Assembly (NCBI GenBank): GCA_003336485.1 | Contig: QENH01000200.1 | Span: forward strand, 7,510 to 71,509 | Direction: 5' to 3' | DNA from: Candidatus Methanophagales archaeon | Lineage (GTDB): Archaea; Halobacteriota; Syntropharchaeia; Alkanophagales; Methanospirareceae | DNA: 64,000 nt | Part shown: in pieces, positions 4,649 to 42,870 of the stretch | How the letters are laid out: the number at the start of each line of letters is the position of its first letter | Position numbering within the stretch: position 1 is the first letter of the stretch | Translations under genes and position numbers: made by a program | The notes under the pieces: generated by a model | What the model saw: the letters and a program-made list of their open reading frames with translations, nothing else | Database searches by the model: none | Told to the model about the DNA's origin: nothing

Positions 4649-7249
4649 ATGGATAAAATAAGTATAAATATGAAAGGGCTAGAAAAAACATCAATAATCT
4701 ATGGTGTCATATTGGCGCTGATATTCTGTGTTTCGCTTGCTATACGGGGTGTTTTACCATATGCGAGTGTTTTTACTGATACATTCGTCAAATTTGGCGG
4801 GAATGACCCTTGGTATAAGATGCGAGTGGTGGAAAACATGCTGCAGAACTTCCCGCATCGTATTTACTTCGACCCGTTCACATATTATCCTCATGGTACG
4901 CATTTGGGCGTTGGACCGTTATTTGATTACTTGCTTGCGGTTATTATATGGCTAATCGGGCTTGGGAACCCTTTCGCTACTTTAGGTCAGCAGGGAATAG
5001 AAGTAATAGGCGCCTGGTATCCTGCCGTTTTGGGCGCTCTTACTGTTTTACCGGTCTATTTTATAGGAAAAGAATTATGGGGCAGGAATGCCGGCATTCT
5101 CTCCGCAGCCCTAATCGCTATTCTCCCGGGACAGTTCTTATCCCGTTCTCTATTGGGCTTCACAGACCATCACGTTATGGAAACGCTATTCAGTACGATA
5201 GCAATCCTATTCATCATTTTAGCGATAAAGGCGGCGAAGAAGAATGGAATAACATTTCATACCATATTGGAGAAGGATTGGACTTCTTTGAAGAGGCCAA
5301 TGCTTTATTCCTTCTTCGGCGGCATATTCCTCGGAAGTTATTACCTCGCGTGGATGGGTGCCTCACTCCTCATCTTTGTTCTGATTATCTTTGCAGCGGT
5401 GCAGTATGTGCTAGACCATGTAAGAGGCGTAAGCACTGATTATCTTTGCATTATTGCCGTCCCGGTTTTTATTATTTCGTTACTGATGATTGCCCCCGTG
5501 CCATATATTGGCTCTCTAACGGGCATTTCGTTTATTTCGCTTCTCCTTGTAATAGCTGTATTTCTTATTTTGAGTGCTCTTTCAGTTTTGATGGACAGGA
5601 AGAAAATGAACCCTTATGGGTATCCTATTGCGATATTGGCTGTTGCTGTATCATCCATCATCATTTTGAGCGCTTTGAGTCTACCCATATACTCAAAGAT
5701 TATCGGAGCGCTTCATGTCTTTATTCCTTCTGCGTCCAGTTTGACCATAGCTGAAGTTCATCCAATGCATATTATATCACAATATACCGGTAAGTTCACC
5801 GATGGTGAAGCCTGGCGCTGGTTCACCACGCCCTTTTTCGTTGCCTTCGCTGCTTTTCCCTTGATCGGCTATAACATAGCGAAGAAATTCAGGGCAGAAG
5901 AGATGTTGATCCTTGTATGGAGTGTGGTAATGCTGTTTGCATGTTTTGGGCAGAATAGGTTCGCGGCATATTATGCAGTGAACGTTGCTCTTCTCTGTGG
6001 ACTCGTTTCCTGGAAGCTAATTGAGTTTGTATGGCTTAGAGGCGCGGGCGATGCGGTAGAAAAAGCGGGGGTGAAGATAAAGGGGAAGACGAAAGGGGGA
6101 GCAGGTATGGAGAAGGCGAAGCCTAATAAAAAAGTGCATAATGATGAGAAGAGACCGGAAATGGATAAAGTAAAGCGGTATTTACGTCCGGAGCTCATAA
6201 TTACGTGCATCATCATAGGCGTAGTTGTATTTATCCCACCGCTAAATGCTTCTTTAGCAAGTGCGAAATATGGTGGCGGTCCTGCTGACGATTGGTACGA
6301 ATCTCTCTCCTGGATGCGGAATAACACGCCCGATACAGGTGTTGACTATTATGCACACTATGACCGACCACCGATAAATGAAACAACCGGTAGAATAGAG
6401 GATTATAACTATCCGGAATCGGCATATTCGGTAATAAGCTGGTGGGACTATGGACATTGGATTACGCGCATCGCTCGTAGGATTCCCGTTGCCAATCCGT
6501 TCGGGCAGCAGGGCATAGGGGGGCCGTATCGTGGGAACGACCCCGGTGCGTGCCTATTCTTCGTTACAACGAACGTAAGCGAAGCGAACAATGTTGCCGA
6601 TGCGCTTGACGTGAAATATGTAGTGACAGATTTCATGATGGCCGATGCATTCAACGCATTTTATAATAAATTCGGTGCAATGACCGTTTGGTTTGGCGAT
6701 ACAGAAGGATATTACACTCAAGTTGTCACTGATGATGGTCCTCAAATAGGGCCAAGTACAAAGTATTTCAGCACGATGGTGGCACGACTTCACATATTCG
6801 ATGGTCGGGGTGTAGCACTAAGTGAAGAGTTCTATCTGGAGCCGTTACGCCATTACCGGCTTATTCACGAATCGCCCAGTAGCATAATTGTCATGGGTGG
6901 GCAACCGATAAAATATGTTAAGGTCTTCGAATACGTAGAAGGTGCGAAGCTAAAAGGAACCGCACCTATTGGTTCCATAGTGGAAATAGCGACAAATGTG
7001 TCTACAAATACGGGGCGCGAATATATCTATGCCGAGCGAATGATGTCAAATGGCACATACGAGTTCCCCGTGCCGTATTCAACGGCGGGGCCGATAGAAG
7101 GCGGCACGAATTTTGACGTTTTCGCATCGCCATATAAAGTGAGTGTAGGGTATGTAACAAACGCAACGGTGGCATGGACAGAGGCGAAGGAGATTAATGT
7201 GCCGGAAGAGGCAGTAATGGACGGCAAAATGATAACGGTGAATTCGTAA
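4649..7249 (+). CDS. aglB: Archaeal oligosaccharyltransferase AglB (STT3 family)
   Basis: 866 aa with a multi-TM N-terminal half, the STT3 hallmark WWDYG (SWWDYGHWI) and a soluble C-terminal domain. Confidence 0.9.
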   Translation: MDKISINMKGLEKTSIIYGVILALIFCVSLAIRGVLPYASVFTDTFVKFGGNDPWYKMRVVENMLQNFPHRIYFDPFTYYPHGTHLGVGPLFDYLLAVIIWLIGLGNPFATLGQQGIEVIGAWYPAVLGALTVLPVYFIGKELWGRNAGILSAALIAILPGQFLSRSLLGFTDHHVMETLFSTIAILFIILAIKAAKKNGITFHTILEKDWTSLKRPMLYSFFGGIFLGSYYLAWMGASLLIFVLIIFAAVQYVLDHVRGVSTDYLCIIAVPVFIISLLMIAPVPYIGSLTGISFISLLLVIAVFLILSALSVLMDRKKMNPYGYPIAILAVAVSSIIILSALSLPIYSKIIGALHVFIPSASSLTIAEVHPMHIISQYTGKFTDGEAWRWFTTPFFVAFAAFPLIGYNIAKKFRAEEMLILVWSVVMLFACFGQNRFAAYYAVNVALLCGLVSWKLIEFVWLRGAGDAVEKAGVKIKGKTKGGAGMEKAKPNKKVHNDEKRPEMDKVKRYLRPELIITCIIIGVVVFIPPLNASLASAKYGGGPADDWYESLSWMRNNTPDTGVDYYAHYDRPPINETTGRIEDYNYPESAYSVISWWDYGHWITRIARRIPVANPFGQQGIGGPYRGNDPGACLFFVTTNVSEANNVADALDVKYVVTDFMMADAFNAFYNKFGAMTVWFGDTEGYYTQVVTDDGPQIGPSTKYFSTMVARLHIFDGRGVALSEEFYLEPLRHYRLIHESPSSIIVMGGQPIKYVKVFEYVEGAKLKGTAPIGSIVEIATNVSTNTGREYIYAERMMSNGTYEFPVPYSTAGPIEGGTNFDVFASPYKVSVGYVTNATVAWTEAKEINVPEEAVMDGKMITVNS

Positions 7250-8270: not shown

Positions 8271-8831
8271 GTGAAAATAAGAGTGGGAATAACCGGGAAG
8301 CCGAAGATAGGGAAGTCAACGATTATAAAAGAAGAGATACAGCGATTGAAAGCGGAAGGGATTGCTGTGGGCGGCATGCTTACATCGGACATCCATAAAA
8401 GCGGCAGGCGAGTAGGTTTCTCGATAGAGGACATAAACTCCGGTGTCATGGGCATTCTGGCACATGTGCACCAGGGAGGTCCCAAAGTGGGTAAATATGG
8501 AGTAAACATAATTGATTTAGATTCCATCGGTGCAAACTCGATAAAAGATGCGGTTGCAAGTCTGGATATAGCAGTGATCTTCGTAGATGAAATAGGACCT
8601 ATGGAACTGAAGTCAATGCGTTTCATAACTGCGGTGGAAGAGGCGATAAAAAGTGATAAACATCTCATTGTCTCTGTGCATCAGAAGTCGGAGCACGAAC
8701 TGGTAAGGCGGATAAAAGACGATTTCGAGATAATTGCTGTTACGGAAGAGAACAGGGCTGAGATTGCTATGATCTTAAGTGAAAAAGTGTTTGGCTGTAA
8801 TGATTCAGCACAAGAAACGGTATATTTTTGA
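8271..8831 (+). CDS. Nucleoside-triphosphatase, THEP1/MJ1559 family
   Basis: P-loop GITGKPKIGKST and a size of 186 aa, typical of archaeal NTPase THEP1. Confidence 0.7.
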   Translation: MKIRVGITGKPKIGKSTIIKEEIQRLKAEGIAVGGMLTSDIHKSGRRVGFSIEDINSGVMGILAHVHQGGPKVGKYGVNIIDLDSIGANSIKDAVASLDIAVIFVDEIGPMELKSMRFITAVEEAIKSDKHLIVSVHQKSEHELVRRIKDDFEIIAVTEENRAEIAMILSEKVFGCNDSAQETVYF

Positions 8832-9607
8832 TGAGAGAAAGTTTCAGGCTAAAAGAGACGTTCGTATGGATAACCGCAGACGAAAAGAGGCACATAGAGG
8901 TTGCAAAAAAAGAGTTAACGCAACGCCGAAGAGATTTGGAACGATTCGCGCGCTGGCATCCTTACTTTCTTGTAACCTTTGAAAGCTACCCGATAGATGA
9001 GACAGAAGTCGGTAATGCCACTATAGCGGCGATAGTGCGAAGAATGATAGAGTCAGCGGAAAAATTCGGCTTAGGGCCGATGTCAGCAGTTGCAGGTACT
9101 TTAGCGGAGTTCGCAGTTGATGCAATGCAAGATGCCGGGGCGACATACGCAATGGTAGATAACGGTGGCGATGTTGCATTAATAACAGATAGAGCGATAC
9201 TTGTGGGCATATATGCAGGGGAAAGTCCCTTCTCGAACAAAATCGCACTTAAAATAAAACCTTCTGCCTCTATGGTGGGAATATGCACATCCTCTGGTAC
9301 CGTGGGACATTCCATAAGCTTTGGGCATGCAGATGCAGCGACGGTGATAAGTAATAGCGCATCTTTGTCCGATGCCGCAGCCACGGCACTATGCAATTCC
9401 GCCACAGACGCCCAATCTATCTCAAAGGTATTCCATTCGATCGACCACGTGGAAGGCATTGAAGGTGCGCTTGTAATATATAAGGACAAGCTTGCAACAT
9501 GGGGTGAAATTCCGGAAATAGCGCGTTTAAATAGTGAAGATCACACGAATTCTCAAAAAAGTTTTTATATACAAAAGACCAATATAAAAGTGGAGGAAGA
9601 GCTATGA
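8828..9607 (+). CDS. UPF0280 / ApbE-like protein
   Basis: GPMSAVAGTLAEFAVDAM...MVDNGGDVAL resembles the ApbE flavin-transferase core. The ~250-aa length matches the methanogen UPF0280 family. It is ATGA-coupled to the upstream NTPase gene. Confidence 0.5.
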   Translation: MMRESFRLKETFVWITADEKRHIEVAKKELTQRRRDLERFARWHPYFLVTFESYPIDETEVGNATIAAIVRRMIESAEKFGLGPMSAVAGTLAEFAVDAMQDAGATYAMVDNGGDVALITDRAILVGIYAGESPFSNKIALKIKPSASMVGICTSSGTVGHSISFGHADAATVISNSASLSDAAATALCNSATDAQSISKVFHSIDHVEGIEGALVIYKDKLATWGEIPEIARLNSEDHTNSQKSFYIQKTNIKVEEEL

Positions 9608-10076: not shown

Positions 10077-11366
10077 ATGAACGACAATTCTAGCACCGTC
10101 AAGTGGGAAAAGAAGGAATTAGAGAAAATTTCTTTGGCTGAAGGAGTTAACGTGGAAAAATTGGAACAACTCCTTGGAGCAGGTCAAGTGGTAATCCCAA
10201 AAAACGCAAAGAGGGCAGAGAAGGGAGACATAACGCTAAAAGCTATTGGCGCTGGGATGAGTATGAAAGTGAACGTTAACGTAGGTACGTCAACGGATTA
10301 TGTTAGCGTCGAGGAAGAAGTAAGAAAGGCAAAGGTAGCGGTAGAATACGGCGCGGATGCCATAATGGACCTCTCCACTGGTGGAAACCTCGCTGCAACC
10401 AGGAGAGCGATTTTGAAAGAGGTAGATGTGCCAGTAGGGACGGTCCCGATATACCAGGCGGCTTTAGAGAAGGCTGATGAACGGGCAGTAGTGGACATGA
10501 GTTCCGATGACTTGTTCAATGCGGTAAGGACCCATGCAAAAGACGGAATAGATTTTGTCACCATTCATGCCGGTGTCAATCAGAATTCGTTGGCACGATT
10601 GAAACTTAGCGGGCGCATATTAGATGTTGTCAGTCGCGGTGGCGCGTTCCTCGTTGCTTGGATGATACATAACGAGCGTGAGAATCCATTTTACGCCGAA
10701 TATGATTACCTGTTGGAAATAGCGAACGAGTATGATTTAACGCTCAGTTTGGGCGATGGTATGCGTCCAGGTTGCGTTTCCGATGCTTCCGACCGTGCCA
10801 AATTTGCAGAAGCTATTACACTTGGCGAACTCGTGAAACGAGCTCGTGAAGAAGGTGTACAGGCAATGGTCGAAGGCCCGGGACATGTGCCATTAGACGA
10901 AATAGAAGCATCTGTAAAGATAATAAAGCATGTAACTGATTTTGCACCGCTTTACCTCTTAGGGCCTCTTGTTACTGACATCGCACCCGGATACGACCAT
11001 TTCGTGAGTGCGATCGGTGGTGCGGTTGCGGGGATGTACGGTGCGGACTTCCTATGTATGGTTTCGCCATCAGAGCATTTGGCGTTGCCATCAGTGGACG
11101 ACATAAAGGAAGGCACGATCGTAACGAAGATAGCTGCGCATGTCGCAGACCTTGTAAGAGAGGGGCAACGAGAAAAGGCGAGACAATTAGATGCTGAGAT
11201 GGCTCATGCAAGGAAAGGCCTCGATTGGAAAAGGCAATTTGAGCTCGCGATGAACCCTGAGGAAGCGATGAGAATAAGAAATAGCAGACTCTCGAAAAGC
11301 GATGCATGCTCTATCTGTGGCGATCTGTGCGCGATAAAGATGGTGAAGGAGTGTTTGGAGAAATGA
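10077..11366 (+). CDS. thiC: Phosphomethylpyrimidine synthase ThiC
   Basis: 429 aa with a conserved radical-SAM-type C-terminal CxxCxxxxC ([13 protein letters not shown]) and an overall ThiC-like sequence. Confidence 0.9.
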
Positions 11367-11486
11367 TTTTGAGTTTGAGGGACTTAAACCAAGAGAATTA
11401 TATTAATTCCGCATCTTGTTCATTTTATGTGCTCTTAATGTAAGCAAATAGGATCTGTTTCTTCTACTTATGGTCTTTTATATGAC

Positions 11487-11534
11487 CTTGACGAATAGAA
11501 TAATGCAAAAAGATATGAGGTGAAAAAGAAGAAA
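11487..11534 (+). promoter_or_regulatory. Conserved 5' leader/promoter block shared by the three beta-helix paralogs. The other copies are at 14288-14322 and 16057-16107.
   Basis: The block ATGACGAATAGAATAA(A)TG(C/A)AAAAG recurs immediately upstream of each paralog start. Confidence 0.4.
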
Positions 11535-13940
11535 ATGAAAAAACCAATAGCAATTTTATTGATAGCTGCAATATTAACGCTAGGCATAGCTACAAGTGCA
11601 CTGCCATTCTCATTCTCAACTTGCGCAACTACAAATAACCAAGGATCTCCACTACTGGCAACAGCCATGCCAGCACTAGCACAAGGTAGCAATGGCACTC
11701 CTAGCGAAGGCGACGCCAGTAGTATGGAAATTCCCCCGAATGCTGAGGAAAATGAGATAACAACGGGCAAGGAGTACTTAAACACCATACAAATGGACGG
11801 TTCTTCATCAGCTCTTTCACATGATGATACAAAGCTTCCATACAACTCTTCGGGTAACAGACAAAAAGGCAGAGATATGCATACATTAGGGAAAATACCG
11901 AGTGAATCGGAACAGCCAGTAGAAGTATCAAAACCACCATTGAAAGGATCTAAACAGCCAGTAAAAGTATCGAAACCGCCAATTAAAGAATCCAAACAAC
12001 AATTAGTACATAATATAAACACAGGCGAGGACTTCACCACGATCCAAGCAGCAATAGATGATCCTGATACATTGGATGGACATACGATTACGGTTGATCC
12101 GGGAACGTATACGGAGAATGTAGCTGTTTACAAGTCTTTAACTATACACTCAACCACAGGTAATCCATTAGATACGATTGTTCAGACGAATTCTGATGAC
12201 CATGTCGTTAATGTATCTGCGGATTATGTGAACATAAAGGGGTTTACGGTGTCGGTGATAGATGATTGGATGAAGGCGGGAATATATCTCGGAAGCGGAG
12301 TGGATCACTGCACCCTCTCTGATAATAATATGACAGATACTTGGTGGGGCATCTATCTAGATCATTCCAACCACAACTATCTCTCTAACAATAACGCCTG
12401 GTATAACGAGTATGGCATCTCTCTGGATTATTCCAGCAACAACTGTCTCTCTAACAATAACGCCTGGTATAATAACGAGTATGGCATAGGTCTATCTCAT
12501 TCCAGCAACAACTGTCTCTCTAACAATAATATCTCGGATTTTAACTTTTATAGCATCTACCTATTGGAATCTAGCAACAACTCCATCTCTAACAATAATC
12601 TCTGGAATAACGAGGATGGCATATACCTATCTTATTCCAGCGACAACTATATTTCTAACAATAATGGTTGGGCTAACAATGGTTATTTCATTAGGCTGTC
12701 GCATTCCAGCAACAACCATATTTCTAACAATAATGCATGGTCAAACTTCTTGGGTGGTATCCGTTTGTCACATTCCAGCAACAACACGATCTCCAACATT
12801 AATACTTCGAACAACGATTTCTTTGGCATTTGTCTATCTGATTCCGACAACAACGGTCTCTATAACAATAATGTCTCGAACAACGGGGATTATGGTATCT
12901 GCCTCTCTTCCTCGAGTAGCAACACCATCTACAACAACTACTTCAACAACACGAACAACGCCTATGATGATGGAACCAACATCTGGAACATCTCAAAAGA
13001 AAATGGACCAAATATCATTGGTGGTGACTATCTTGGTGGGAACTATTGGAGCGATTACACGGGCATAGATGAAGATGGCGATGGACTTGGAGATACTTTG
13101 CTACCATACAACTCTTCTGGTGAGATCCAAAATGGCGGTGATTTGCGGCCATTAGTTACAGCGTGTTTTACACCGCCGGAGATCACTTCTTCCGCCCCTC
13201 TTTCTCCGGTTAACGATACAATATGCACATGGCGGACATTTAACGTTACGGTAGATCAGACGGTGAACGTGCGCTGGTATTTGAACGATATGTTATTATT
13301 CACGAACCTAAGTGTGCGAAAAGCCGATTGCACACTCCATGCAGAGGTTGTGGGAGAACACAACGTAACAGCAAATGCATCGAATGCAAATGGCTCTGAT
13401 CTGCAGACCTGGATCTGGAATGTGACTGGTTTTACTGCGGAGCCGCCTGAAATAACATACTATGCCCCCAAATCGCCGGTTAACGATACCCGAAATGCAA
13501 CAAGGACATTCAACATCACAATCAATCAATCAGTAAATGTTAGTTGGCAGATAAACGGCACGACAGTTCAGGCCAATGAGGGTCTAACCGAAGCATCATA
13601 CACGAATACAAGTGCGGTCATTGGGACCTGGAACGTTTCTGTGATTGTAAGCAATGCAAATGGGACCGACATGCAGACGTGGATATGGACTGTAACATCA
13701 CCATGTTTCATAGCAACAGCAGCATATGGGACGCCATTGCACGGAGATATAGACGTTTTGAGAGATTTCCGAGACGAATATCTGATGTCGAATCCAACCG
13801 GGAGAGCATTTGTAAAAGTTTATTATAATGCAAGTCCCCCAATTGCTGATTGGATAAGGGCGAATGAAGGATTGGGAACTGCTGTACGGGAAGGTTTTGT
13901 TAAACCATTAGTGTATGTTACGAGGATGTTTGTAGGCTGA
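11535..13940 (+). CDS. Secreted right-handed parallel beta-helix (PbH1/NosD-like) repeat surface protein, paralog 1
   Basis: Signal peptide [22 protein letters not shown] (ORF-track start at 11520 adds a K-rich extension). Sequence features in order:
- K/P-rich 11-aa repeats ([11 protein letters not shown]);
- ~22-aa PbH1 repeats (GIxLxxSSNNxxSNNN);
- NosD-like tail [28 protein letters not shown];
- two ~90-aa Ig-like repeats;
- a conserved C-terminal CFIATAAYG domain. Confidence 0.8.
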
Positions 13941-14322
13941 GCGGGGATATTTTGAACTGAATTCTGTCATCGCGATAACACGTCCCAAAGTTGGCTCTTC
14001 GTCCGTCCAGAACTCCCACATATCTTCATCACACGCCGAGTCATATATTCGCGGTGAATTCTCAGTATTGTCTGTCTCACCCTTATCCCGGTCATTGGTG
14101 AGCCAAGCAGTAGAGGAGAGCAACAATAATTTTTGAAGGGTGTATAGCGCGGTTTATTTCGATTATTCAGCCCTGCTTGTGGAGTCGAAAGAGGTTTCTA
14201 CTTTTGGAGTTATAAGGTCACAACTTGTTTATACGTTATCAACACACCAAAATAACACCTGTTCATTCTACCGAGGGTGTTTTATATCAACATGACGAAT
14301 AGAATAAATGAAAAGGAAAAAA

Positions 14323-15876
14323 ATGAAAAACCCAATAGCAATTTTATTGATAACTGCAATATTAACGCTAGCCATAGCTACAAGTGCACTGCCATTCTCG
14401 GCTTGCGCAACTACAAATAACCAAGATTCTTTGATACGGGCAACAGCCATGCCAGCACTAGCACAAGATAGTAAGGATACTCCCTGCGAAGACAACGCCA
14501 ATAGTATGGGATTTGCCCCGAACGCTGAGGAAAATGAGATAACAACGGGCAAGGAGGGCTTAGACACCATACAAATGGACGGGTCTTCATCAGCTCTTTC
14601 GCATGGCGATACAAAGCTACCATACAACTCTTCTGGCAACATAAAAAATGGCGGAGATCTGCATACATTAGAGAAAAAATCGAGTGGATCGAAACCGCCA
14701 GTGAAAGTATCGAAACAGCCGGTGAAAATATCGAAACCACCCGTGAAAGTATCTAAACTACTTTTAGTTCATAATAGGGACACCGGCAAGAACTTTGCTA
14801 CGATACAGGCTGCGATTGATGATTCTGATACCGTAGATGGGCATACGATTATGGTTGATCCAGGAACGTATACGGAAAATATAGTTGTTTACAAGTCTCT
14901 AACGATCAGATCAACCACAGGTAATCCGGCGGATACGATTGTCCCGGCTGCGGATTATAGAGCTCATGTCTTTAATGTGACCGCGGATTATGTGACTATA
15001 CGCGGGTTTACGGTATCGGGGGCAAATGATTATGATACACTGCCGGCCGGAATATATCTGGGAAACGGAGTGGATCACTGCAACATCTTAGATAATAATC
15101 TAATTGACAATTGGAGGGGCATCGATATATACTATTCCAACAACAACGGTCTCTCTAACAATAACGCCTGGTATAACGAGTATGGCATCGGTCTATCTCA
15201 TTCTAGCAACAACTGTCTCTCTAACAATAATATCTCGAATTTTAACCATTATAGCATCTACCTATTGGAATCTAGCAACAACTCCATCTCTAACAATAAT
15301 CTCTGGGATAACGAGTATGGCATATATCTGTCTTATTCCAGCAACAACTATATTTCTAACATTAATGGTTGGGCTAACAATTGTCATCTCATTACGCTGT
15401 CACATTCCTGCAACAACCATATTTCTAACATTAATGCATGGTTAAACTTCTATGGGGGTATCAGTTTGTCACATTCCAGCAACAACTCTATCTCAAACAT
15501 TAATACTTCGAACAACGATTTCTTTGGCCTCTATCTATCGGATTCCGACAACAACTGTCTCTATAACAATATTGTCTCGAACAACGGGGATTATGGTATC
15601 TACCTCTCTTCTTCTAGTAGCAACACCATCTACAACAACTATTTTGACAACACGAACAATGCTTGGGATGACGGAAGCAACATCTGGAACATCACGCCGA
15701 CCTTAGGCGAGAATATCATTGGCGGTTGCTTGCAGGGAGGTAATTATTGGAGCGATTACACGGGCATAGATGAAGATGGTGATGGACATGGAGATACAAT
15801 GCTACCATACAACTCTCCTGGTGAGATACAAAATGGCGGCGATTTGCGACCATTGGTACCTAGAACGTTTTTATGA
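14323..15876 (+). CDS. Secreted beta-helix repeat surface protein, paralog 2 (lacks the C-terminal domain)
   Basis: It has the same signal peptide and N-terminal region as paralogs 1 and 3, PbH1 repeats and the NosD-like tail, but ends at ...GDLRPLVPRTFL with no Ig-like or CFIATAAYG domain. Confidence 0.7.
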   Translation: MKNPIAILLITAILTLAIATSALPFSACATTNNQDSLIRATAMPALAQDSKDTPCEDNANSMGFAPNAEENEITTGKEGLDTIQMDGSSSALSHGDTKLPYNSSGNIKNGGDLHTLEKKSSGSKPPVKVSKQPVKISKPPVKVSKLLLVHNRDTGKNFATIQAAIDDSDTVDGHTIMVDPGTYTENIVVYKSLTIRSTTGNPADTIVPAADYRAHVFNVTADYVTIRGFTVSGANDYDTLPAGIYLGNGVDHCNILDNNLIDNWRGIDIYYSNNNGLSNNNAWYNEYGIGLSHSSNNCLSNNNISNFNHYSIYLLESSNNSISNNNLWDNEYGIYLSYSSNNYISNINGWANNCHLITLSHSCNNHISNINAWLNFYGGISLSHSSNNSISNINTSNNDFFGLYLSDSDNNCLYNNIVSNNGDYGIYLSSSSSNTIYNNYFDNTNNAWDDGSNIWNITPTLGENIIGGCLQGGNYWSDYTGIDEDGDGHGDTMLPYNSPGEIQNGGDLRPLVPRTFL

Positions 15877-16107
15877 TTGTACGCAATGTTTTGGCTGCAC
15901 AATGAGATTTTTTTATATATATATCAAGCCAAAATGTTCTAGCAAGCAGGTAGCGGCATTTTCCACTTGAAGAGTAAAAAACCCCTATCGTACCCATTTT
16001 ATGAGTCCCTAACACCTATGAATATGACATATTCACCCAACCTATGTCTTTTTATGCAGATATGATGAATAGAACAAATGCAAAAGTATGATGTGGAAAA
16101 GATAAAA

Positions 16108-19100
16108 ATGAAAACCCCAATAGCAATATTATTAATAGCCGCAATATTAACGCTAGCCATAGCTACAAGTGCACTCTCATTCTCGGCTTGCGCAACTACA
16201 AATAACCAAGAATCTTCGACATTGGCAACAGCCATGCCAGCACTAGCACAAGGTAGCAATGGTACCCCTAACGAAGACGACACCAGTAGTAGGGGATTTA
16301 CCCCGGATGCTGTGGCATGTGTCTTAACAAAGGACGTGGTGGCCTTTGATACCGTACAAATGGACGGTTTTGCATCTGCCCTTTCGCATGAAGATACAAC
16401 GCTTCCATACAACTCTTCGGGTAACAGACAAAAAGGCAGAGATATGCATACATCAGGGAAAATACCGAGTGAATCGGAACAGCCAGTAGAAGTATCAAAA
16501 CCACCATTGAAAGGATCTAAACAGCCAGTAAAAGTATCGAAACCGCCAATGAAAGAATCCAAACAACAATTAGTACATAATATAGACACAGGCGAGAACT
16601 TCACCACGATACAAGCTGCGATTGGTGATCCTGATACCGAGAATGGGCATACGATTACGGCTGATCCGGGAACGTATACGGAGAATGTAGTTGTTTACAA
16701 GTCTTTAACTATTCGCTCAACCACAGGAAATCCAGCAGATACGATTGTTCAGGCGGCGGATTCCTATGATCATGTCGTTAATGTGACTGCGGATTCTGTG
16801 ACTATAAGCGGGTTTACGGTGTCGGCGATAGATGGATATGCTGCAGGGATATATCTTGGAAGCGGAGTGGATCACTGCAATATCTCTGATAATAATGTAA
16901 CTGTCACTTATGGGTCGGGTATATATCTAGATTGTTCTAGCAACAACCTTATCTCTAACAATAATGCCTGTGGTAACGGGCCATCTGGCATCGAGCTGTC
17001 TCATTCCAACACCAATACTATCGTTAACAATACTGCAGACTATAATGACGAATATGGAATCCATCTGGATTATTCCAGCAACAACTTCATCTCTAACAAT
17101 AATGCCAGCGGGAATAACGGGCATGGCATCTATCTATCTCATTCCAACAACAACTCTCTTTCTAGCAATAATGTCTCGCAGTGTTGGTATGGCATCTATC
17201 TATCTCATTCCAACAACAACTCTCTTTCTAACAGTAATGTTTGGGGATTCGATGATGATGGCATCAGTCTATATTATTCTAGCAACAATTCGCTCTATAA
17301 CAATAACGTCTGGCTTAGCAGTGGTACGGGCATCCGTCTGTCATCTTCCAGCCACAACTCGCTCTCTAACAATAATGTCTTTAGTAACCTTGCTTTTGGC
17401 ATCGCGCTATATGGATCCAGCAACAACTCTCTTTCTACTAATACCCTAGAAAATAACGATTATGGCATCGAGCTGTCTCATTCCACCTGCAACTCGCTCT
17501 ATAACAATAATGTCTTGAAGAATGATGAGCATGGCATCCACCTCTCTTCTTCAGATAGCAACCTCATCTACAACAACATTTTCAACAACACGAACAACGC
17601 CTATGATGATGGAAGCAACATCTGGAACATCACAAAAGAATATACCCCAAACGGGAACATCATTGGCGGTCCTTACTTAGGGGGGAACAATTGGAGCGAT
17701 TACATGGGCATAGATAAAGATGGCGATGGACTTGGAGATACTTTGATGCCATACAACTCTTCGGGCGACATCCAAAACGGCGGCGATTTGCGGCCATTAG
17801 TGGAACCATCTGAACTACCAGTACATAATACAAACACAGGCGAGAACTTCGCCACGATACAAGCTGCGATTGATGATCCTGATACCGTGAATGGGCATAC
17901 GATTACGGCTGATCCGGGAACGTATATAGAGAATGTAGTTGTTTACAAGTCTTTAACTATGCACTCAACCTCAGGAAATCCATCAGATACGATTGTTCAG
18001 GCGGCGGATTCCTATGATCATGTCGTTAATGTGACTGCGGATTATGTGACTATACGCGGGTTTACGGTGTCGGGGGCATCATATGGATGGGATATAGCGG
18101 GAATATATCTTGGAAGCGGAGTGGATCATTGCACCATCTCTGATAATAATATAACTGACAATGGGTGGGGCATCTATCTGGATCATTCCAGCCACAACCA
18201 TCTCTATAACAATAATGTCCGGGGTAACGTCGGCGTTAATGGCGGCGGAATCAGGCTGTCATATTCCGGCGGCAACACTCTCTCTAACAATAACGTCTTG
18301 AACAACGAGGATGATGGCATCTGGCTATATCATTCCAACAACAACACTCTCTCTAACATTAATGCATCGCATAACTACTTTGGCATCATTCTGTCACATT
18401 GCAGCAACAACTCGCTCTTTAATATTGATGCTTCTAACGCATTCGCAAGCATATGGCTCTCTCAATCCAGCAACAACTCGCTCTTTAACATTAATGCCCG
18501 CCACAGCTCTGGTGACGCCGGCATTGTGCTGTTTCAATCCAGCAACAACTCGCTCTCTAACATTAATGCATCGGATGTCATGGGTTATCCTGGCATACAC
18601 CTCTCATCTTCCAGCAACAACTCGCTCTTTAACATTAATGCCTTTAACAACTTTTTAGGCATCGAGCTGTCAGATTCCAGCAACAACACTCTCTATAACA
18701 ATAATGTCTCGAATAACTATCTGTGGGGCATCGAGCTGTCACATTCCTCCTGCAACTCGCTCTATAACAATAATGTCTCGAACAATTATGATCTTGGCAT
18801 CCGCCTCTCTTCTTCAAACAATAACCGCATCTACAACAACATTTTCAACAACACGAACAACGCCTATGATGATGGAACAAACATCTGGAACATCACAAAA
18901 GAATATACGCCAAACGGGAACATCATTGGCGGTACTTACTTAGGGGGGAACAATTGGAGCGATTACATGGGCATAGATGAAGATGGCGATGGACTTGGAG
19001 ATACTTTGCTGCCATACAACTCTTCGGGCGACATCAAAAATGGCGGCGATTTGCGGCCTTTAGTGGAACCATCTGAACTACCAGTACATAATATAGACAC

Positions 19101-20616
19101 AGGCGAGAACTTCGCCACGATACAAGCTGCGATTGATGATCCTGATACCGTGAATTGGCATACGATTACGGCTGATCCGGGAACGTATACGGAGAATGTA
19201 GTTGTTTACAAGTCTTTAACTATTCGCTCGACCACAGGAAATCCATCAGATACGATTGTTCAGGCGGCGGATTCCTATGATCATGTCGTTAATGTGACTG
19301 CGGATTCTGTGACTATAAGCGGGTTTACGGTGTCGGGGGCACCAAGTTGGGATAGTGCAGGGATATATCTTGGAAGCGGAGTGGATCTTTGCACCATCTC
19401 TGATAATAATATAACTGACAATGGGAGGGGCATCTATCTGGATCATTCTAGCCACAACACTCTCTCTAACAATAATGCCCTGAAGAACTTTTGGTGTGGC
19501 ATCTATCTAGATTATTCCAGCAACAACAAGCTCCTCAACAATACTATCTTTCGAGGCGATTATGGCATCTATCTGGATTATTCCAGCAACAACTTCCTCT
19601 ATAACAATACTGTCGATTGGAGCGGTATGGAAGGCATAATTATGTCACATTGCAGCAACAATTCGCTCTTTAACAATAATGCCTGGGGTGTCAATGGTCC
19701 AGGCATCCATCTATCTTCTTCCAGCAACAACAACAATCTCTCAAACAATAATGCCTGGCATAACCTTGATGGTATCATTCTGTCACATTGCAGCAACAAC
19801 TCGCTCTTTAACAATAACGCCTGGTATAACGAGTATGGCATAGGTCTATATCATACCAACAACAACACTCTCTCAAACATTAATGCATCGCATAACGACT
19901 TTGGCATCTATCTGTATCATTGCAGCAGCAACTCGCTCTTTAACAATAACGCCTTTAACAACTATTTTGGCATCGAGCTGTCACATTCCAGCAACAACTC
20001 TATCTCAAACATTAATACATCGAACAACGATTTCTTTGGCATCTATCTATCTGATTCCGACAACAACTGTCTCTATAACAATATTGTCTTGAAGAATGAT
20101 GAGCATGGCATCCACCTCTCTTCTTCAGATAGCAACCTCATCTACAACAACATTTTCAACAACACGAACAACGCCTATGATGATGGAAGCAACATCTGGA
20201 ACAGCACAAACACCACGGGACCGAACATCATTGGTGGACCTTATATTGGCGGTAACTATTGGTCTGATTATGCAGGTATTGATTCGAATCATGATGGTTT
20301 TGGCGATACGCCTTATAATATACCGCCAGGCGGCATTAGCAAAGATTATTTACCGCTGGTTCCTGTTGAACCATCACCATGTTTCATAGCAACAGCAGCA
20401 TATGGTACGCCATTGCACGATGATATAGACGTTTTGAGAGATTTCCGAGACGAATATCTGATGATGAATCCAACAGGGAGAACATTTGTAAAAGTTTATT
20501 ATACATTGAGTCCACCGGTTGCGGATTTGATAAGGGGAAATGAAGGACTGGGAACTGCTGTACGGGAGGGTTTTGTTAAACCCTTAGTGTATGTTACGAG
20601 GATGTTTGTAGGCTGA
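16108..20616 (+). CDS. Giant secreted beta-helix repeat surface protein, paralog 3 (three tandem NosD-like modules)
   Basis: The same signal peptide is followed by three ~420-aa modules, each starting [22 protein letters not shown] and ending ...[13 protein letters not shown], then the C-terminal CFIATAAYG domain. The ORF-track start at 16078 is an upstream in-frame ATG. Confidence 0.8.
16576..20345 (+). repeat. Three tandem ~1.25 kb coding modules inside paralog 3. They start near 16576, 17824 and 19087, with a period of about 1248-1263 bp.
   Basis: Read directly from the sequence. Module ends are about 95% identical at nucleotide level (for example 17650-17822 vs 18900-19083), while interiors differ in PbH1 repeat content. 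Confidence 0.85.
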
Positions 20617-20636
20617 GCGGGGATATTTTATTCCAT

Positions 20637-21221
20637 TTATGTGAAAAACTTCTCGTTCAGAATCTCAATCGCATCCTTCTCTCTACGCCCGCCGCATTTT
20701 TCGACTATGTCCGCATAATGTACCATCTCTTTTTTTAGCTCTTCCTGTTCTCGTTCATCCCTGGTCATTTTATACCGCGTTGCGAGTATAGTAGCTTCAA
20801 TCACCGCATTAAGCCCCCTATTTATCGCTTTTAGCTCATTCCAATTGATTTTCACTGCTATGGGCGTCAATTGAAAGATGGAATATACACCGCTCTTCTC
20901 TTCTAAAACCGCCCGGAATATTATCCCCGATTGCGCTTCTTTTAGTACCGGAAATCCGGAAAGAGCTGAATAATGCGATTTGTCCAACTTCTCAAATGCC
21001 GCTTTCACGAATAAGACCGCGTCACAGGTTACATTCGCGGCTAATTTGTCCGTTTCCGTCACGTTAGAAAGGGTTCTTGAACCTTTGTATAGTTTCACAA
21101 AATGCCCGTTTGTTGTTGTTATTATACCAATAGGGGCAGCATTGAACGTGCCCACAGCGGATCTCGAGGTAACTATTACTTCTGATATGCCCTCGTCTAT
21201 GCCAGCTTCTCTTATGTTCAT
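20637..21221 (-). CDS. DUF447-like protein (predicted flavin-binding split barrel)
   Basis: 194 aa. It resembles methanogen DUF447 proteins, but the family assignment comes from memory and is not computed. Confidence 0.4.
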   Translation of the reverse strand: MNIREAGIDEGISEVIVTSRSAVGTFNAAPIGIITTTNGHFVKLYKGSRTLSNVTETDKLAANVTCDAVLFVKAAFEKLDKSHYSALSGFPVLKEAQSGIIFRAVLEEKSGVYSIFQLTPIAVKINWNELKAINRGLNAVIEATILATRYKMTRDEREQEELKKEMVHYADIVEKCGGRREKDAIEILNEKFFT

Positions 21222-21285
21222 TCTTAAAATCAGTTAAAAATATCTTTTTTGCTGATGCCGAAAAGAGCGAAAACAAAACGCGGTT

Positions 21286-22122
21286 CTAGCTCTTTTTTCT
21301 AATATGTGTAATTGCTGCAGTTAATATCAGAATGATGATTACTGTAGTCGCGTCGAGAGAAGGTAGGGTAGAGGATGACTTACCGATTGTTATTTCGACT
21401 GGCTTGGATTGTGAGACTTTAGAGTCCGCATTCACGAAAGCAAGAGCGGTGTATTGCCCTTCTTCTTCGTCTGTAGTATCCCAGAAAAGTTTAACGTGTT
21501 TTTCTTCTCCCACGATCAGCTCTTCGGGAAAGCCGGGTATCTCTTCCGCTTTTACCCCATCTTTGTACACCGTCACGTTTGGATAAGCGGTTGTACGCAC
21601 GTCCCCATTGTTATTGATAACCAAATCGAACTTCAGAATGTCTCCACGTGAAACGCTTGTGGTAGGGACAGAGAAGGAAGTAATTATAGCTGAGATAACG
21701 GCACCGGGTTTCACGAAATTAGCATACGTCTTTGCCTTTAGCGAGATGATGTAGCCAACTGCAGACCCTTCTCCACTAGCGCCCGAGACCCGTTTTTTGC
21801 CCGCTGCTTTTATCCAGCCATTGTATTCCCCGAGTTTCGCATCTTCCGGAACAATAAGGGTTAAGATAACTTCTTCTGTCTCTCCAGCGTGCAAATCGAA
21901 TTCCGCAGGCGAAAACGATATCAAATCCGACATTTCGCCGCCCTTCTCCATTACGAAATGATTGTCAAAATCCTTTTCTAATGAATAGACCAAAACAGAT
22001 ATGTTATGCACCTTTCCAAGCTCCACGCTACCGAAGCTTGCTCCAGTTATCCCAAATGCACTTGCTGTACTGATACAAAACAAGATGCAAAGGATAAATA
22101 CCAGTGCGGCCTTTTTTATCAT
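21286..22122 (-). CDS. Secreted protein with a C-terminal TM anchor
   Basis: N-terminal signal peptide MIKKAALVFILCILFCISTASA. The C-terminus has a hydrophobic helix plus a basic tail (TVIIILILTAAITHIRKKS) and no PGF motif. Confidence 0.5.
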   Translation of the reverse strand: MIKKAALVFILCILFCISTASAFGITGASFGSVELGKVHNISVLVYSLEKDFDNHFVMEKGGEMSDLISFSPAEFDLHAGETEEVILTLIVPEDAKLGEYNGWIKAAGKKRVSGASGEGSAVGYIISLKAKTYANFVKPGAVISAIITSFSVPTTSVSRGDILKFDLVINNNGDVRTTAYPNVTVYKDGVKAEEIPGFPEELIVGEEKHVKLFWDTTDEEEGQYTALAFVNADSKVSQSKPVEITIGKSSSTLPSLDATTVIIILILTAAITHIRKKS

Positions 22123-22194
22123 GGTTTTTCTCTTTGACTTATTAAAAAAAAATAAAAAGACAAAAAGAAAAAGGTTTTGTCTTACTCTACTATG

Positions 22195-22710
22195 CTACGC
22201 TATGCTAAATATTAGTTCGACTGTTCCGTTATACTTGCCGGCTTCTTGGTATGACGGCACGTTTAGCCCTGCACTGAAATCTTCTGTGCTCTGACTGGTC
22301 ACAGTTCCTATCTCAACATCCTGTCCTTCATTGTCTAATGGTATTTCATTTAACTCAAAATTATCTGCTGGGATTACTTTCCCTTCCGATGGCGTTGGTT
22401 TATATCCTTTCGACGAGTTAGTCAAACCATAGGTACCACCCACTTCTATGGTGAATGCTGCTTCCACCAAAGCCTCGAGACCTCCAGTGTTATCTAGCGT
22501 AAATGACGGCGATAGCTCTTTCAACACTCCAGGAGCCATGTCGCCAAAATCCGCTTCCGCTATACTAATACTTACATCGATGCCTTTTACATTTACTGAA
22601 TACTCTACAGACTCTGTAATCTGGACTTTCTCAGCAGATGCTGCTACCGCTATGATCATAGCAAACATCCATAGAGCAAATACAATCGCTATTTTTTTCC
22701 CCCTTTTCAT
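22195..22710 (-). CDS. Secreted protein of unknown function
   Basis: Signal peptide MKRGKKIAIVFALWMFAMIIAVAASA. It lies next to the other secreted protein. Confidence 0.45.
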   Translation of the reverse strand: MKRGKKIAIVFALWMFAMIIAVAASAEKVQITESVEYSVNVKGIDVSISIAEADFGDMAPGVLKELSPSFTLDNTGGLEALVEAAFTIEVGGTYGLTNSSKGYKPTPSEGKVIPADNFELNEIPLDNEGQDVEIGTVTSQSTEDFSAGLNVPSYQEAGKYNGTVELIFSIA

Positions 22711-22996
22711 CTTTTTTCAGATCACCCCCTAACCATATACCATTACTACATGGCAAGATGATAAGTTAAGAACCTATATAAATATGTGTCCCATGTTGTT
22801 ACGAAAAGACAACCAAATCTTAATATTTTTGGGTATTTCTGCTAAACCCAAATAGGTTAGGCATGCCTAAAAAGGTTAGCGTTGCAAAAAAGATTGAGGG
22901 GCATTGAAATGGCCGTTACCTTTTTCTCATTTACAACTTAATTGATGAACAGTACGTTAAGCGAGAGATAGTAATCGAAAATACAGGAGTAAAAAA

Positions 22997-25146: not shown

Positions 25147-25872
25147 ATGACGACATGGACTGAATTGAAGTTTGGAGGCAGGACTTTTTCCCCGGAAGTG
25201 CGGAAATTGGGCGATATGAAGGAAGTCGTATTAGACAAGCGCTTTTTAGCGTGTGCGGACATGGATATGGCGCTGTATTTCATGTTCAGGGAAGTATCAA
25301 AGAATGAAGAGGACGAGAAGCGGATAAAAGAAAGAGAGCTGAGATACGACATCACTATTATCCCCCCGAATACGCTCGGCGCGGAATTTGTTAAAACCGC
25401 GGGACACTATCATCCCCTTATACCGGGTTCACAAATGACATATCCCGAGATGTACGAGGTATTAGAAGGCGAAGCACATTATCTTTTACAGTGCAGAGAT
25501 GAAGATGGCGGTACCGAGAAGATAACAGATGTAGTTGTGGTAAAGGCGAAAAAAGGCGATACTGTTATAATACCGCCCAATTACGGGCATGTTACGATAA
25601 ACCCATCTGAAGCGACGTTAAAAATGGCTAACTGGGTTGCAAGGGCTTTCTCTTCGATCTACGAGCCGATACGAGTAAAAGGCGGTGCCGCGTACTTCGA
25701 GCTGACCAACGGCGAGTTTATTAAGAACGAAAAATATGGGGCCGTGCCTGATATTAGGTTCCTTAAGCCTGAGGCGACAGGGATAAAGCAAATAAAGCTG
25801 AACAAAGAAGTGACAATGTACGAACTACTTCGAGAGCCCGAAAAGTTGCAGTTCCTTATATCACACATTTGA
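25147..25872 (+). CDS. Cupin-type glucose-6-phosphate isomerase (cPGI)
   Basis: Signature motifs TIIPPNTLGAEFVKTAGHYH (TxxPxxxGxExxxTxGHxH) and PPNYGHVTIN (PPxxxHxxxN). The 241-aa length fits archaeal cPGIs. Confidence 0.6.
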   Translation: MTTWTELKFGGRTFSPEVRKLGDMKEVVLDKRFLACADMDMALYFMFREVSKNEEDEKRIKERELRYDITIIPPNTLGAEFVKTAGHYHPLIPGSQMTYPEMYEVLEGEAHYLLQCRDEDGGTEKITDVVVVKAKKGDTVIIPPNYGHVTINPSEATLKMANWVARAFSSIYEPIRVKGGAAYFELTNGEFIKNEKYGAVPDIRFLKPEATGIKQIKLNKEVTMYELLREPEKLQFLISHI

Positions 25873-26025
25873 AACTTCCGGATATTTTTATTGGACTCTT
25901 CACCATTCTCGCCTCCTTCTATAGTCGGTCTACAAAGGATTTTGATAGATAGAATATTCAAGAGATGTAATTAATACTAATGTCAGAAAGCGAATATAAG
26001 AAGGCGAGAAGCGAAGTGATTAATA

Positions 26026-26844
26026 ATGACGCTAAGAGATTATTTAAAGGATTCTGAGATGAAAGGTGTTGAACTACAAAGGAATCCGTATCTCATCAGT
26101 GCTTTCTATTTGATCCTGATAACAATTGCAGAGTGGGTAACAAATTATCATCCTAAATTTGGGATTGCATCACACGTTTTCATCATGATCCTACTGTTTT
26201 GTCATTTCGCTCTGGTATCAGACAAAGATGATAATTTAGCACATTATCTTATTGCTCTTCTTCTCGCCCCGCTTATACGTATACTGAGCTTATGTCTACC
26301 ATATATACAGTTCAGTTGGATCTTTAGCTTCACGCTCGTGTCAATACCACTATTCATAGCGATCTTTACCTGCATGTGGCTGCAAGGGCTACACGGAGCG
26401 GATGTTGGGTTTTCGTCACCCAAGTTGAAGTACCTGCCACTAGAAGCAGGAATAATTCTTTTTGCCGTAGCTCTGGGAATAGCGGAATATATGATTTTAA
26501 GACCCAACCCATTGCCGGCGTCAGGAACATTGAATTTAATCATCGCATCACTACTTTTAATAATATGCACGGGCTTTTTAGAGGAGCTGATCTTCAGGGG
26601 TTTGCTACAATATAATGCAGTAAGAGTGATGAGTAAATGGCGTGGTATCTTTATTGTATCCGCTATTTTCGGCGTGCTTCACCTTGGAAATATATCCCCG
26701 TGGCATTTAGATTGCTTCTTTGCTGGCGCTGTTGGGTTTCTGTTTGCCGTAGTGCGCGATAAAACAGGATCAATACACGGTATAAGCTTCGCGCACGGCA
26801 TTATAAACATAGTTCTGTTTTTAATCGCACCGCTTTATTTTTGA
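26026..26844 (+). CDS. CPBP family intramembrane glutamic endopeptidase (CAAX protease / Abi)
   Basis: Multi-TM protein with the FLEELIFRGLL motif (EExxxR) and the FGVLH motif. Confidence 0.7.
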   Translation: MTLRDYLKDSEMKGVELQRNPYLISAFYLILITIAEWVTNYHPKFGIASHVFIMILLFCHFALVSDKDDNLAHYLIALLLAPLIRILSLCLPYIQFSWIFSFTLVSIPLFIAIFTCMWLQGLHGADVGFSSPKLKYLPLEAGIILFAVALGIAEYMILRPNPLPASGTLNLIIASLLLIICTGFLEELIFRGLLQYNAVRVMSKWRGIFIVSAIFGVLHLGNISPWHLDCFFAGAVGFLFAVVRDKTGSIHGISFAHGIINIVLFLIAPLYF

Positions 26845-26901
26845 TCGTCTGTATTTTTCTTTTGAGTTCAAAACACAGATTATCGCCTTTAGCCCTTACC
26901 C

Positions 26902-28628: not shown

Positions 28629-28661
28629 ATACTTCTCTTTATACTAAGTTCTTAATATTTA

Positions 28662-40503: not shown

Positions 40504-40513
40504 GCCAACCTCT

Positions 40514-42811: not shown

Positions 42812-42870
42812 GCTCTCTTCACACCATATAATAAAAAAAGTGAGGCTATTTTTTTTTTCGCCTCACAAGA
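42812..42870 (-). terminator. Hairpin plus oligo-T terminator-like structure after the stop of the PGF-CTERM gene at 42846-43538
   Basis: On the minus strand the sequence is GTGAGGC-GAAAAAAAAAATA-GCCTCAC followed by TTTTTTTT, and the hairpin spans the stop codon. Archaeal termination typically occurs at oligo-T tracts. Confidence 0.5.

Follow-up and report, generated by a model that had tools for sequence, protein, structure and literature searches.

The window analyzed here is the whole 64,000-nucleotide (nt) stretch taken from contig QENH01000200.1, a metagenome-derived sequence of a Methanophagales archaeon (anaerobic methanotrophic archaea group 1, ANME-1). Between 11 and 21 kb it harbors an array of three genes, designated g1, g2 and g3, which probably encode modular proteins of the cell envelope, adhesin-like or glycan-binding, diversified by the shuffling of cassettes. 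The recombinational part of this reading is well supported by sequence comparison: the five beta-helix modules of the array and the ends of its genes appear to have exchanged segments by homologous recombination, through patchy gene conversion and unequal crossing-over.

Architecture of the array

The three open reading frames (ORFs) are intact and lie on the + strand, and comparison of the 11-21 kb region with itself by BLASTN returned 138 paralogous high-scoring segment pairs, in agreement with the original prediction of three same-strand paralogous genes encoding 806, 522 and 1512 amino acids (aa). Helix modules were delimited by the motifs VHN...RPLV, upstream elements were located by three-way alignment of the copies, and repeats were identified with Tandem Repeats Finder (TRF). 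The resulting layout, which includes immunoglobulin (Ig)-like domains supported by an AlphaFold2 model, is as follows.

11476-11483 and 11488-11503, + strand: TATA-like box TTTTATAT and leader TTGACGAATAGAATAA of g1
11520-13940, + strand: g1 (gene 1, 806 aa), encoding signal peptide, disordered N-region, Lys/Pro-rich (K/P) linker, one beta-helix module, two Ig-like domains and CFI-box-CTERM
11520-11624, + strand: g1 signal peptide, with K-rich n-region, hydrophobic core and a conserved Cys at its end (FSTC)
11625-11927, + strand: g1 N-region
11928-12005, + strand: g1 K/P linker (TRF; repeat array at 11904-11998)
12006-13157, + strand: g1 beta-helix module (VHN...RPLV, 384 aa)
13167-13697, + strand: g1 pair of Ig-like (PKD-like) beta-sandwich domains (AlphaFold2, Foldseek, weak PKD match)
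13698-13937, + strand: g1 CFI-box-CTERM domain (NF041770, 89.4 bits)
13938-13953, + strand: g1 stop codon and 13-nt 3' flank TGAGCGGGGATATTTT, identical in g3 at 20614-20629
14280-14287 and 14292-14307, + strand: TATA-like box and leader ATGACGAATAGAATAA of g2
14308-15876, + strand: g2 (gene 2, 522 aa), encoding signal peptide, N-region, linker and one helix module
14689-14766, + strand: g2 linker
14767-15858, + strand: g2 helix module
16050-16057 and 16062-16077, + strand: weaker TATA-like box TTTTATGC and leader ATGATGAATAGAACAA of g3
16078-20616, + strand: g3 (gene 3, 1512 aa), encoding signal peptide, N-region, linker, three helix modules and CFI-box-CTERM
16495-16572, + strand: g3 linker
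16573-17802, + strand: g3 helix module a (g3a, 410 aa)
17803-17820, + strand: short linker EPSELP
17821-19065, + strand: g3 helix module b (g3b, 415 aa)
19066-19083, + strand: second EPSELP linker
19084-20361, + strand: g3 helix module c (g3c, 426 aa), with a variant tail
20374-20613, + strand: g3 CFI-box-CTERM domain (NF041770, 86.0 bits)

Likeness among the copies begins upstream of the start codons, where leaders with the consensus [A/T]TGA[C/T]GAATAGAA[T/C]AA are found at 11488, 14292 and 16062, each with a TTTTAT[A/G][T/C] box 4 nt upstream. These upstream cassettes are putative promoters; neither the array nor its leaders match any Rfam family. Nucleotide identity of the signal peptides is 88-95% over 91 nt, the N-regions (~100-130 aa) are 69-78% identical at the protein level, and the five helix modules show pairwise identities of 63-79% (aa) and 73-85% (nt), the three complete modules of g3 being spaced at 1248-1263 nt. 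Module ends share the motif IIGG.YLGGN.WSDY.GID.DGDG.GDT, and g2 reaches its stop six codons past RPLV and has no C-terminal domain. All of the shared parts listed in the original prediction (leader, signal peptide, N-domain, linker, PbH1 repeats and module end) are present. Their description as near-identical was an overstatement, since identities range from 75 to 96% and the longest exact repeat between copies measures 119 nt (followed by repeats of 96 and 90 nt), and the linker proposed to repeat every 11 aa is instead composed of SKxPxKx units with a TRF period of 21/42 nt, or 7/14 aa.

Segmental exchange among the copies

Identity among the five aligned helix modules was profiled in a sliding window, with the following outcome (positions are alignment columns).

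First ~180 nt, g3a, g3b and g3c among themselves: 93-98%
First ~180 nt, g1 versus the g3 modules: 85-93%
First ~180 nt, g1-g2: 74-86%
Columns 450-1035, g1-g2: 88-96%
Columns 450-1035, other pairs: mostly 51-83%, the g3c tract excepted
Columns ~945-990, g2-g3c: 97%
Columns ~1035-1080, g3a-g3c: 99%
Columns 1125-1341, g3a-g3b: 96-97%
Columns 1125-1341, g3c versus g3a and g3b: 61-77%

The nearest neighbor of g1 switches at least four times along its length, and g3a and g3c share an identical tract of 119 nt (17511-17629 and 20085-20203). A GENECONV-like permutation procedure, based on 433 polymorphic ungapped sites and 2000 permutations, placed the longest identical runs, spanning 33 polymorphic sites in both g1-g2 and g3a-g3c, above the permutation maximum of 25 (global p 0.0005), with five further module pairs reaching p values of 0.016-0.027. 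The proportion of synonymous differences (pS) in successive segments was 0.02, 0.44, 0.00 and 0.86 for g3a-g3c and 0.49, 0.10 and 0.42 for g1-g2, a variation within single pairs that is beyond what selection at the protein level can explain. Triplet site patterns also differ between segments (chi-square p 1e-15 to 1e-25), the segments having been chosen post hoc and the effect being very large. At the 5' ends of the genes the same mosaic is apparent, where the copy nearest to g1 is g2 over the signal peptide (pS 0.08) and g3 over the linker (pS 0.06, versus 0.33 to g2). Differences in module length correspond to whole 23-aa coils, and such coil-sized indels point to out-of-register recombination as well.

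These sequence patterns bear out the proposal of gene conversion or unequal crossing-over within the array, and they indicate that its homogenization is patchy. The arrangement is not one of identical ends and divergent interiors, as had been envisaged: the ends are 75-92% identical, and the clearest exchange tracts lie within or between helix modules (the central coils of g1 and g2, at 91-96%, and the 119 nt of g3a-g3c). The 3' end reported as common to g1 and g3 is real, with 91.5% identity over 258 nt (13696-13953 versus 20372-20629), a sharp start at SPCFIATAA and an end 13 nt past the stop codon. Much of this likeness is nevertheless accounted for by purifying selection, given the strong conservation of the CFI-box domain that it encodes.

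The central coils, with pS of 0.4-0.6, show a ratio of nonsynonymous (pN) to synonymous differences of ~0.5-0.7, which repeat misalignment may inflate but which suggests relaxed or diversifying selection. Hypermutation by a diversity-generating retroelement was considered and ruled out, mismatch spectra being balanced across bases; no reverse transcriptase was seen among the scanned ORFs of the window.

Predicted fold and homologs of the array proteins

The original description of the proteins as secreted NosD/PbH1 beta-helix paralogs is upheld by profile searches and by the predicted structure, in which the expected beta-helix was found. Scores for g1, g2 and g3 were 174, 164 and 491 bits against PF05048 (NosD; cutoff 23.6), 127, 78 and 311 bits against PF13229 (Beta_helix; cutoff 25.9) and 101, 66 and 367 bits against TIGR03804 (cutoff 19.45), with Pfam E-values between 1e-48 and 1e-148 for the beta-helix families. 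Coils of 22-23 aa recur with a period of 66-69 nt (TRF periods 66-72 nt), including a 69-nt unit in 30 copies. In the AlphaFold2 model of g1, computed from a 70-sequence alignment, residues ~160-500 form a beta-helix with three strands per coil and predicted local distance difference test (pLDDT) values above 90, and residues 555-726 form two beta-sandwich domains (pLDDT ~90). Residues 21-153 are predicted to be disordered (pLDDT 27-36), and the last 78 residues have low confidence in the full-length model.

Foldseek searches against the PDB matched the g1 helix with probability 1.00 to phage tailspikes (5w6p, 6w4q, 6f7k), to AlgG (4nk8), to AlgE6 (5lw3) and to NosD (7o0y_A and 7osf_A; TM-score, TMt, 0.56-0.58), while the sandwich pair matched titin Z1Z2 (TMt ~0.65). 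A counterpart of this Ig-like cassette, 70-75% identical, occurs at two loci of other genomes (L067 and L001). Phmmer searches of PDB sequences yielded no match for g2 and only noise for the C-terminal part of g1. More than 2400 homologs are distributed across Halobacteriota and beyond, and hence the family is not lineage-specific, as had been suggested; rarity is confined to the N-region of the subfamily. The best homologs of the array proteins are 48-56% identical, and no helix homolog above ~56% identity was found in 5.8 billion proteins or in GTDB representative genomes.

Related modular helix proteins were encountered elsewhere. A 10.9-kb contig of a Halobacteriota metagenome-assembled genome from a tar biofilm (L002, 258-10877) consists of one open frame of more than 3540 aa, which continues beyond the end of the contig and includes three helix modules of NosD-like type. 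At the far end of the window, a multi-module NosD-like beta-helix ORF alternating with DUF11-like domains (62121-64000, continuing off the window end) appears to be 5'-truncated; it contains a repeat of 62148-62770 at 63378-64000 with 96.3% identity, and adjoins fragments of a regulator-like gene and a type I hsdR gene (58501-61530).

The N-region as a fusion scar

Only residues 103-127 of the N-region resemble the helix homologs, matching the tail that follows each helix module. Scanning metagenomes with the N-region alignment recovered a single locus, L090 (Ga0114919_10071837), which encodes at 561-2537 a gingipain-like Peptidase_C25 with Propeptide_C25. The signal peptide and first propeptide residues of this protein align to residues 1-103 of the array proteins with 48% identity (E 7e-23), and the alignment stops at D.xLP(Y/H), the point at which the array proteins switch to the helix-tail motif. 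From these alignments, the N-region is best described as a chimeric relic, in which the leader and propeptide start of a C25 peptidase are joined to the degenerate tail of a helix module; its predicted disorder is consistent with such an origin. The fusion predates the triplication, because g1, g2 and g3 all carry the scar. One leader cassette thus serves different passenger domains, a C25 peptidase in L090 and a beta-helix in the array. The Cys that follows the hydrophobic core is conserved in this leader as well (FSTC in g1, FSAC in g2 and g3, LSAC in L090), and the proteins are possibly lipid-anchored at this residue.

Long antisense ORFs of 190, 124 and 202 aa (11468-12040, 14268-14642 and 15999-16607, - strand) overlap the signal peptide and N-region of g1, g2 and g3, and L090 presents a similar open antisense frame over its homologous C25-peptidase leader (antisense of 561-940). 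Codon usage and paralogy, and not genuine genes, probably account for these frames.

The C-terminal CFI-box-CTERM domain

Both g1 (aa 729-792) and g3 (aa 1435-1498) exceed the NF041770 cutoff of 40 bits, and g2 has no match. The two domains are 89.7% identical in aa sequence (pN 0.06, pS 0.19), and each extends to the last residue of its protein with no transmembrane (TM) segment after it. Across 76 homologs, C3 to G11 of the start motif CFIATAAYG are conserved in at least 90% of sequences, and an AlphaFold2 model built from the 76-sequence alignment shows a three-helix unit (pLDDT 81). A profile search of 1.84 billion cluster representatives returned 30,355 CFI-box members at E<=1e-3. In nearly all of the 150 best representatives the domain occupies the C-terminus, ending the protein or leaving ~35 residues after it, and some bacterial members present a TM helix and a basic tail there. 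Eight of the 120 best g1 homologs (from ANME-1, Methanophagaceae and Methanogaster) carry a C-terminal CFI-box ~80% identical to that of g1, a level of conservation that holds even across orders; other g1 homologs end in PGF-CTERM-like TM tails or dockerin-like tails. As judged from these exchanges of termini, the CFI-box may be an interchangeable attachment module used in place of PGF-CTERM or dockerin tails. Literature searches on CFI-box-CTERM retrieved no papers.

No PGF-CTERM tail (PF18204 or TIGR) was matched in g1, g2 or g3, and two other proteins of the window (39367-40533 and 42846-43538) do match PGF-CTERM, so the genome would use PGF-CTERM and CFI-box for different envelope proteins. 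These two proteins belong to a surface-protein cluster (39367-43538) that also includes a peptidase C13/CUB protein (40514-42811). The resemblance of CFIA to a CAAX box had suggested a connection of the CFI-box with a nearby CPBP/Rce1-like protease or exosortase, an idea that was dropped as unsupported; three CFI-box loci of other genomes show no consistent neighbor. In one contig that also encodes a small CFI-box protein (L087), the segment 12122-13493 has an Rce1-like (CPBP) protease gene directly beside the gene of a PEF-CTERM protein, which hints that CPBP proteases may pair with PEF-CTERM-type signals in these archaea.

Genomic context and presence/absence of the array

The array is located downstream of a ThiC gene whose product is 100% identical to RCV62787.1 of a Methanophagales archaeon. 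Three related loci (L080, L081/L082 and L085), with ThiC proteins 92-94% identical in aa, are colinear with the window on both sides of the array at 88-92% nt identity (BLASTN) and present the convergent DUF447 gene directly after ThiC, with a gap of 0-41 nt. Because ThiC abuts DUF447 in these relatives, the whole intervening block constitutes a presence/absence difference.

10077-11366: ThiC gene, upstream neighbor of the array
11358-20638: array block absent from relatives (9.3 kb)

No orthologous array was found in the collections searched and the fetched relatives lack it, so on sequence comparison the array is strain- or species-specific. The locus with the nearest ThiC (L086, 92.2% nt) has purA downstream of ThiC, and an outgroup (L067, ThiC 75% nt) has other surface-protein genes there. 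The latter (L067, 3962-12213) include a secreted multi-domain ORF of 2280 aa, subtilase-like by eye, and a 429-aa protein with an Ig-like domain ~70% identical to that of g1. Surface-protein genes seem to occupy the position downstream of ThiC repeatedly.

At the borders of the array no integrase, transposase, tRNA target or direct or inverted repeat was detected, and no DUF447 remnant or coding relic was found in the spacer between g1 and g2. The GC content of the array (0.41-0.44) equals the window background, and neither of two viral-contig scans, the first run with a single protein and the second with the module alignment, returned relatives. Neighboring genes include those for AglB (archaeosortase A-associated type; 4649-7249, 4 kb upstream), an ApbE-like protein (8828-9607), ThiC, DUF447, two small secreted proteins and an AIR-synthase-like protein.

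Proposed function and alternative explanations

Under the envelope-protein reading, the products of the array would be exported, possibly with a lipid anchor at the N-terminal Cys, and could be N-glycosylated by the AglB encoded 4 kb upstream (they contain 29, 7 and 47 N-glycosylation sequons in g1, g2 and g3, respectively). The flexible K/P stalk would hold the beta-helices away from the membrane, the CFI-box would attach g1 and g3, and the helices might bind or process glycans, whether those of the envelope of the cell itself, of the extracellular matrix or of partner cells, resulting in an adhesin-like role for which cassette recombination would generate surface diversity. The beta-helices of tailspikes and alginate epimerases bind or process polysaccharides, and it is by analogy with these and with CASH-domain proteins that we infer an interaction with glycans.

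Several observations weigh against this interpretation. Its functional component is inferred from modeled fold and architecture only. The contig is derived from a metagenome, and a chimeric assembly across the exact repeats of 90-119 nt is possible. The attachment proposed for the CFI-box is weakened by the occasional fusion of the domain to cytoplasmic-looking Zn-ribbon proteins and by the lack of any significant match to its modeled fold in the PDB, and g2 lacks a C-terminal module altogether. Lipid anchoring is weakened by an LPAM_1 score of 14.1 bits (cutoff 20) and by the imperfect match of FSAC and FSTC to the lipobox [LVI][ASTVI][GAS]C. Finally, the possible inflation of the pN/pS ratio in the central coils qualifies the suggestion of diversifying selection, and the polarity of the indel is ambiguous, as it may reflect an insertion in the window or a loss in the clade of L080, L081 and L085.

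Four other explanations were weighed. Simple tandem duplication followed by independent divergence, with no exchange, and with alike ends produced solely by purifying selection on the signal peptide and C-terminal domain, would fit the CFI-box identity of ~80% in ANME-1 and ANME-2 proteins of other genomes, the low pN/pS of this domain between g1 and g3 (0.06/0.19) and an overall module identity of just 73-85% nt. We deem it highly improbable: synonymous divergence within the same pair differs up to ~50-fold between segments, the nearest neighbor of g1 switches at least four times, identical tracts exceed those of all permutations, and the likeness reaches into non-coding DNA, both upstream and 13 nt past the stop. 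An assembly artifact, namely a short-read chimera across repeated modules or coexisting strain variants, such that the true copies are fewer, more numerous or different, is suggested by the metagenomic source, a 79.7-kb contig from an uncultured Methanophagales, by the exact inter-copy repeats of 119, 96 and 90 nt and by the existence of relatives without the array. It is distinctly unlikely, as none of the three ORFs is interrupted over 8.5 kb of highly repetitive sequence, colinearity with relatives holds on both flanks, identity between copies is only 75-85% over most of the array and therefore easy for assemblers, typical maximum k-mers or read pairs exceed the length of the exact repeats, and the coil-sized in-frame indels and graded divergence look biological.

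The notion that the proteins are genuine NosD-type maturation factors, delivering Cu or S to a periplasmic metalloenzyme, draws on PF05048 being the best-scoring family, on the Foldseek similarity to NosD (TMt 0.56-0.58) and on the ApbE-like gene upstream (8828-9607), and is close to refuted. Against the TIGR04247 cutoff of 300 bits, g1 and g2 score 100.3 and 104.6, and g3 reaches 306.5 only as the sum of six stretches over three modules. Across the five modules no Met column is invariant, and invariant His residues are limited to H2, H26 and H66, which argues, indirectly and by alignment, that the His-Met-Met site is not conserved. No nosZ, nosF, nosY or nosL was seen among the ~35 window ORFs scanned, and the ApbE-like gene belongs to the conserved backbone kept by relatives without the array. 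By these sequence criteria the array proteins are not canonical NosD. The remaining proposal, in which a mobile element or virus inserted between ThiC and DUF447 and brought the array as its cargo, concerns origin and is compatible with the envelope-protein reading. It would account for the presence/absence polymorphism at a precise intergenic site, and finds parallels in two further window-specific blocks within 8 kb (21226-22992 and 25862-28661), in the integrase-like gene of L081/L082 at a neighboring site and in NosD-like genes on viruses of ANME enrichments (PMC13452462). Yet the borders carry none of the expected hallmarks (integrase, transposase, tRNA target, direct or inverted repeat), the GC content of 0.41-0.44 is that of the background, both viral-contig scans came back without relatives and no donor above ~56% identity exists among the 5.8 billion proteins, making this origin unlikely.

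The interpretation of the array as envelope proteins diversified by cassette shuffling can also be extended to a more ambitious model, possible though doubtful, in which the locus serves ANME-1 as a dedicated site of surface diversification. Here, a C25-type leader, NosD-like helix, Ig-like spacer and CFI-box cassettes would be continually reshuffled by homologous recombination, the resulting strain-distinct adhesin repertoires would govern attachment to partners or matrix or susceptibility to viruses, and the CFI-box would act as a novel type of envelope-attachment module, a counterpart of PGF-CTERM and dockerin.

Comparison with known systems

Surface proteins of Methanosarcina built from beta-helix, PKD and YVTN beta-propeller domains (Jing et al. 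2002, Structure 10:1453, pmid 12377130; CASH domain, Ciccarelli et al. 2002) offer a close organizational parallel, in that they are also secreted multi-domain proteins of Halobacteriota that combine PbH1 helices with Ig/PKD-like domains in large paralogous families. The array differs from them in its C25-derived leader scar, its heptad K/P stalk, the presence of up to three helix modules per protein, the replacement of a TM or PGF-CTERM tail by CFI-box-CTERM, its ANME-1 host and its absence from relatives with a ~90% backbone. Non-canonical NosD-like proteins have likewise been described in ANME and alkane-oxidizing consortia and their viruses, in association with dockerin or S-layer type surface modules, with a proposed function in adhesion or involving glycans (Narayanan et al. 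2026, ISME J, PMC13452462). Like the array proteins, they have signal peptides and a NosD-like helix without NosY-binding parts or the His-Met-Met site, which in canonical NosD is a transient Cu-binding motif (PMC13452462). Unlike their viral representatives, the array is chromosomal, lies within a conserved backbone and lacks viral hallmarks.

Canonical NosD of the NosDFY(L) system (PDB 7O0Y and 7OSF) shares the fold class of the array proteins, with PF05048 as best sequence match, but the latter score below the TIGR04247 cutoff per module, conserve no Met, have no nos context and combine multiple modules with stalk and anchor domains. The top structural matches, tailspikes and epimerases (CBA120 TSP2, 5w6p; Det7, 6f7k; AlgG, 4nk8; AlgE6, 5lw3), are right-handed parallel beta-helices as well, although sequence identity to them is just 11-13% and the array proteins have no trimerization domain. 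With the CFI-box-CTERM family (NF041770), g1 and g3 share the invariant CFIATAAYG start and the C-terminal position, and they differ from some bacterial members in that their domain is terminal and followed by no TM segment and basic tail. Variable surface loci are also represented by the cell-wall-associated gene island of Haloquadratum walsbyi (PMC4535781) and by the highly variable modular surface proteins with dockerin and cohesin of ANME (Chadwick et al. 2022, PMC9012536). Both resemble the array in differing between close genomes and in shuffling domains, and the array is set apart by tandem paralogs with demonstrable intra-array exchange and by its lack of dockerin or cohesin.

Current views are not overturned; paralogous beta-helix surface proteins and their variability were already documented in Methanosarcinales and ANME, and among variable gene families of the cell surface the array is a rather ordinary case. 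ANME-1 are uncultured key players in marine methane consumption whose envelope and cell-cell contacts are poorly understood, and for them the locus supplies a concrete set of envelope proteins that varies between strains and bears clear evidence of intra-array recombination. It also exemplifies the assembly of genes from cassettes, with a peptidase leader fused to helix modules, and gives a handle on the widespread CFI-box-CTERM domain. The most useful by-products of the analysis are the C25-leader fusion scar and the characterization of CFI-box-CTERM as a C-terminal module of very large membership that has no structural assignment.

Other blocks private to the window

Downstream of the array, a second block private to the window (21226-22992) separates DUF447 from the AIR-synthase-like gene and carries the genes of two small secreted proteins. 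One of them (278 aa) ends in ...LPSLDATTVIIILILTAAITHIRKKS, where a motif, a TM helix and a basic tail resemble a sortase-type signal. L081 and L082 present an integrase-like gene at the site of this block. The third private block (25862-28661), absent from L080 and L081, comprises a CPBP/Rce1-like intramembrane protease (26026-26844, +), an EpsI-like protein (26902-27774, -) and an exosortase of bacterial type (27771-28628, - strand; TIGR02602, 125.7 bits, cutoff 105.55), a set that is unusual for an ANME-1 archaeon.

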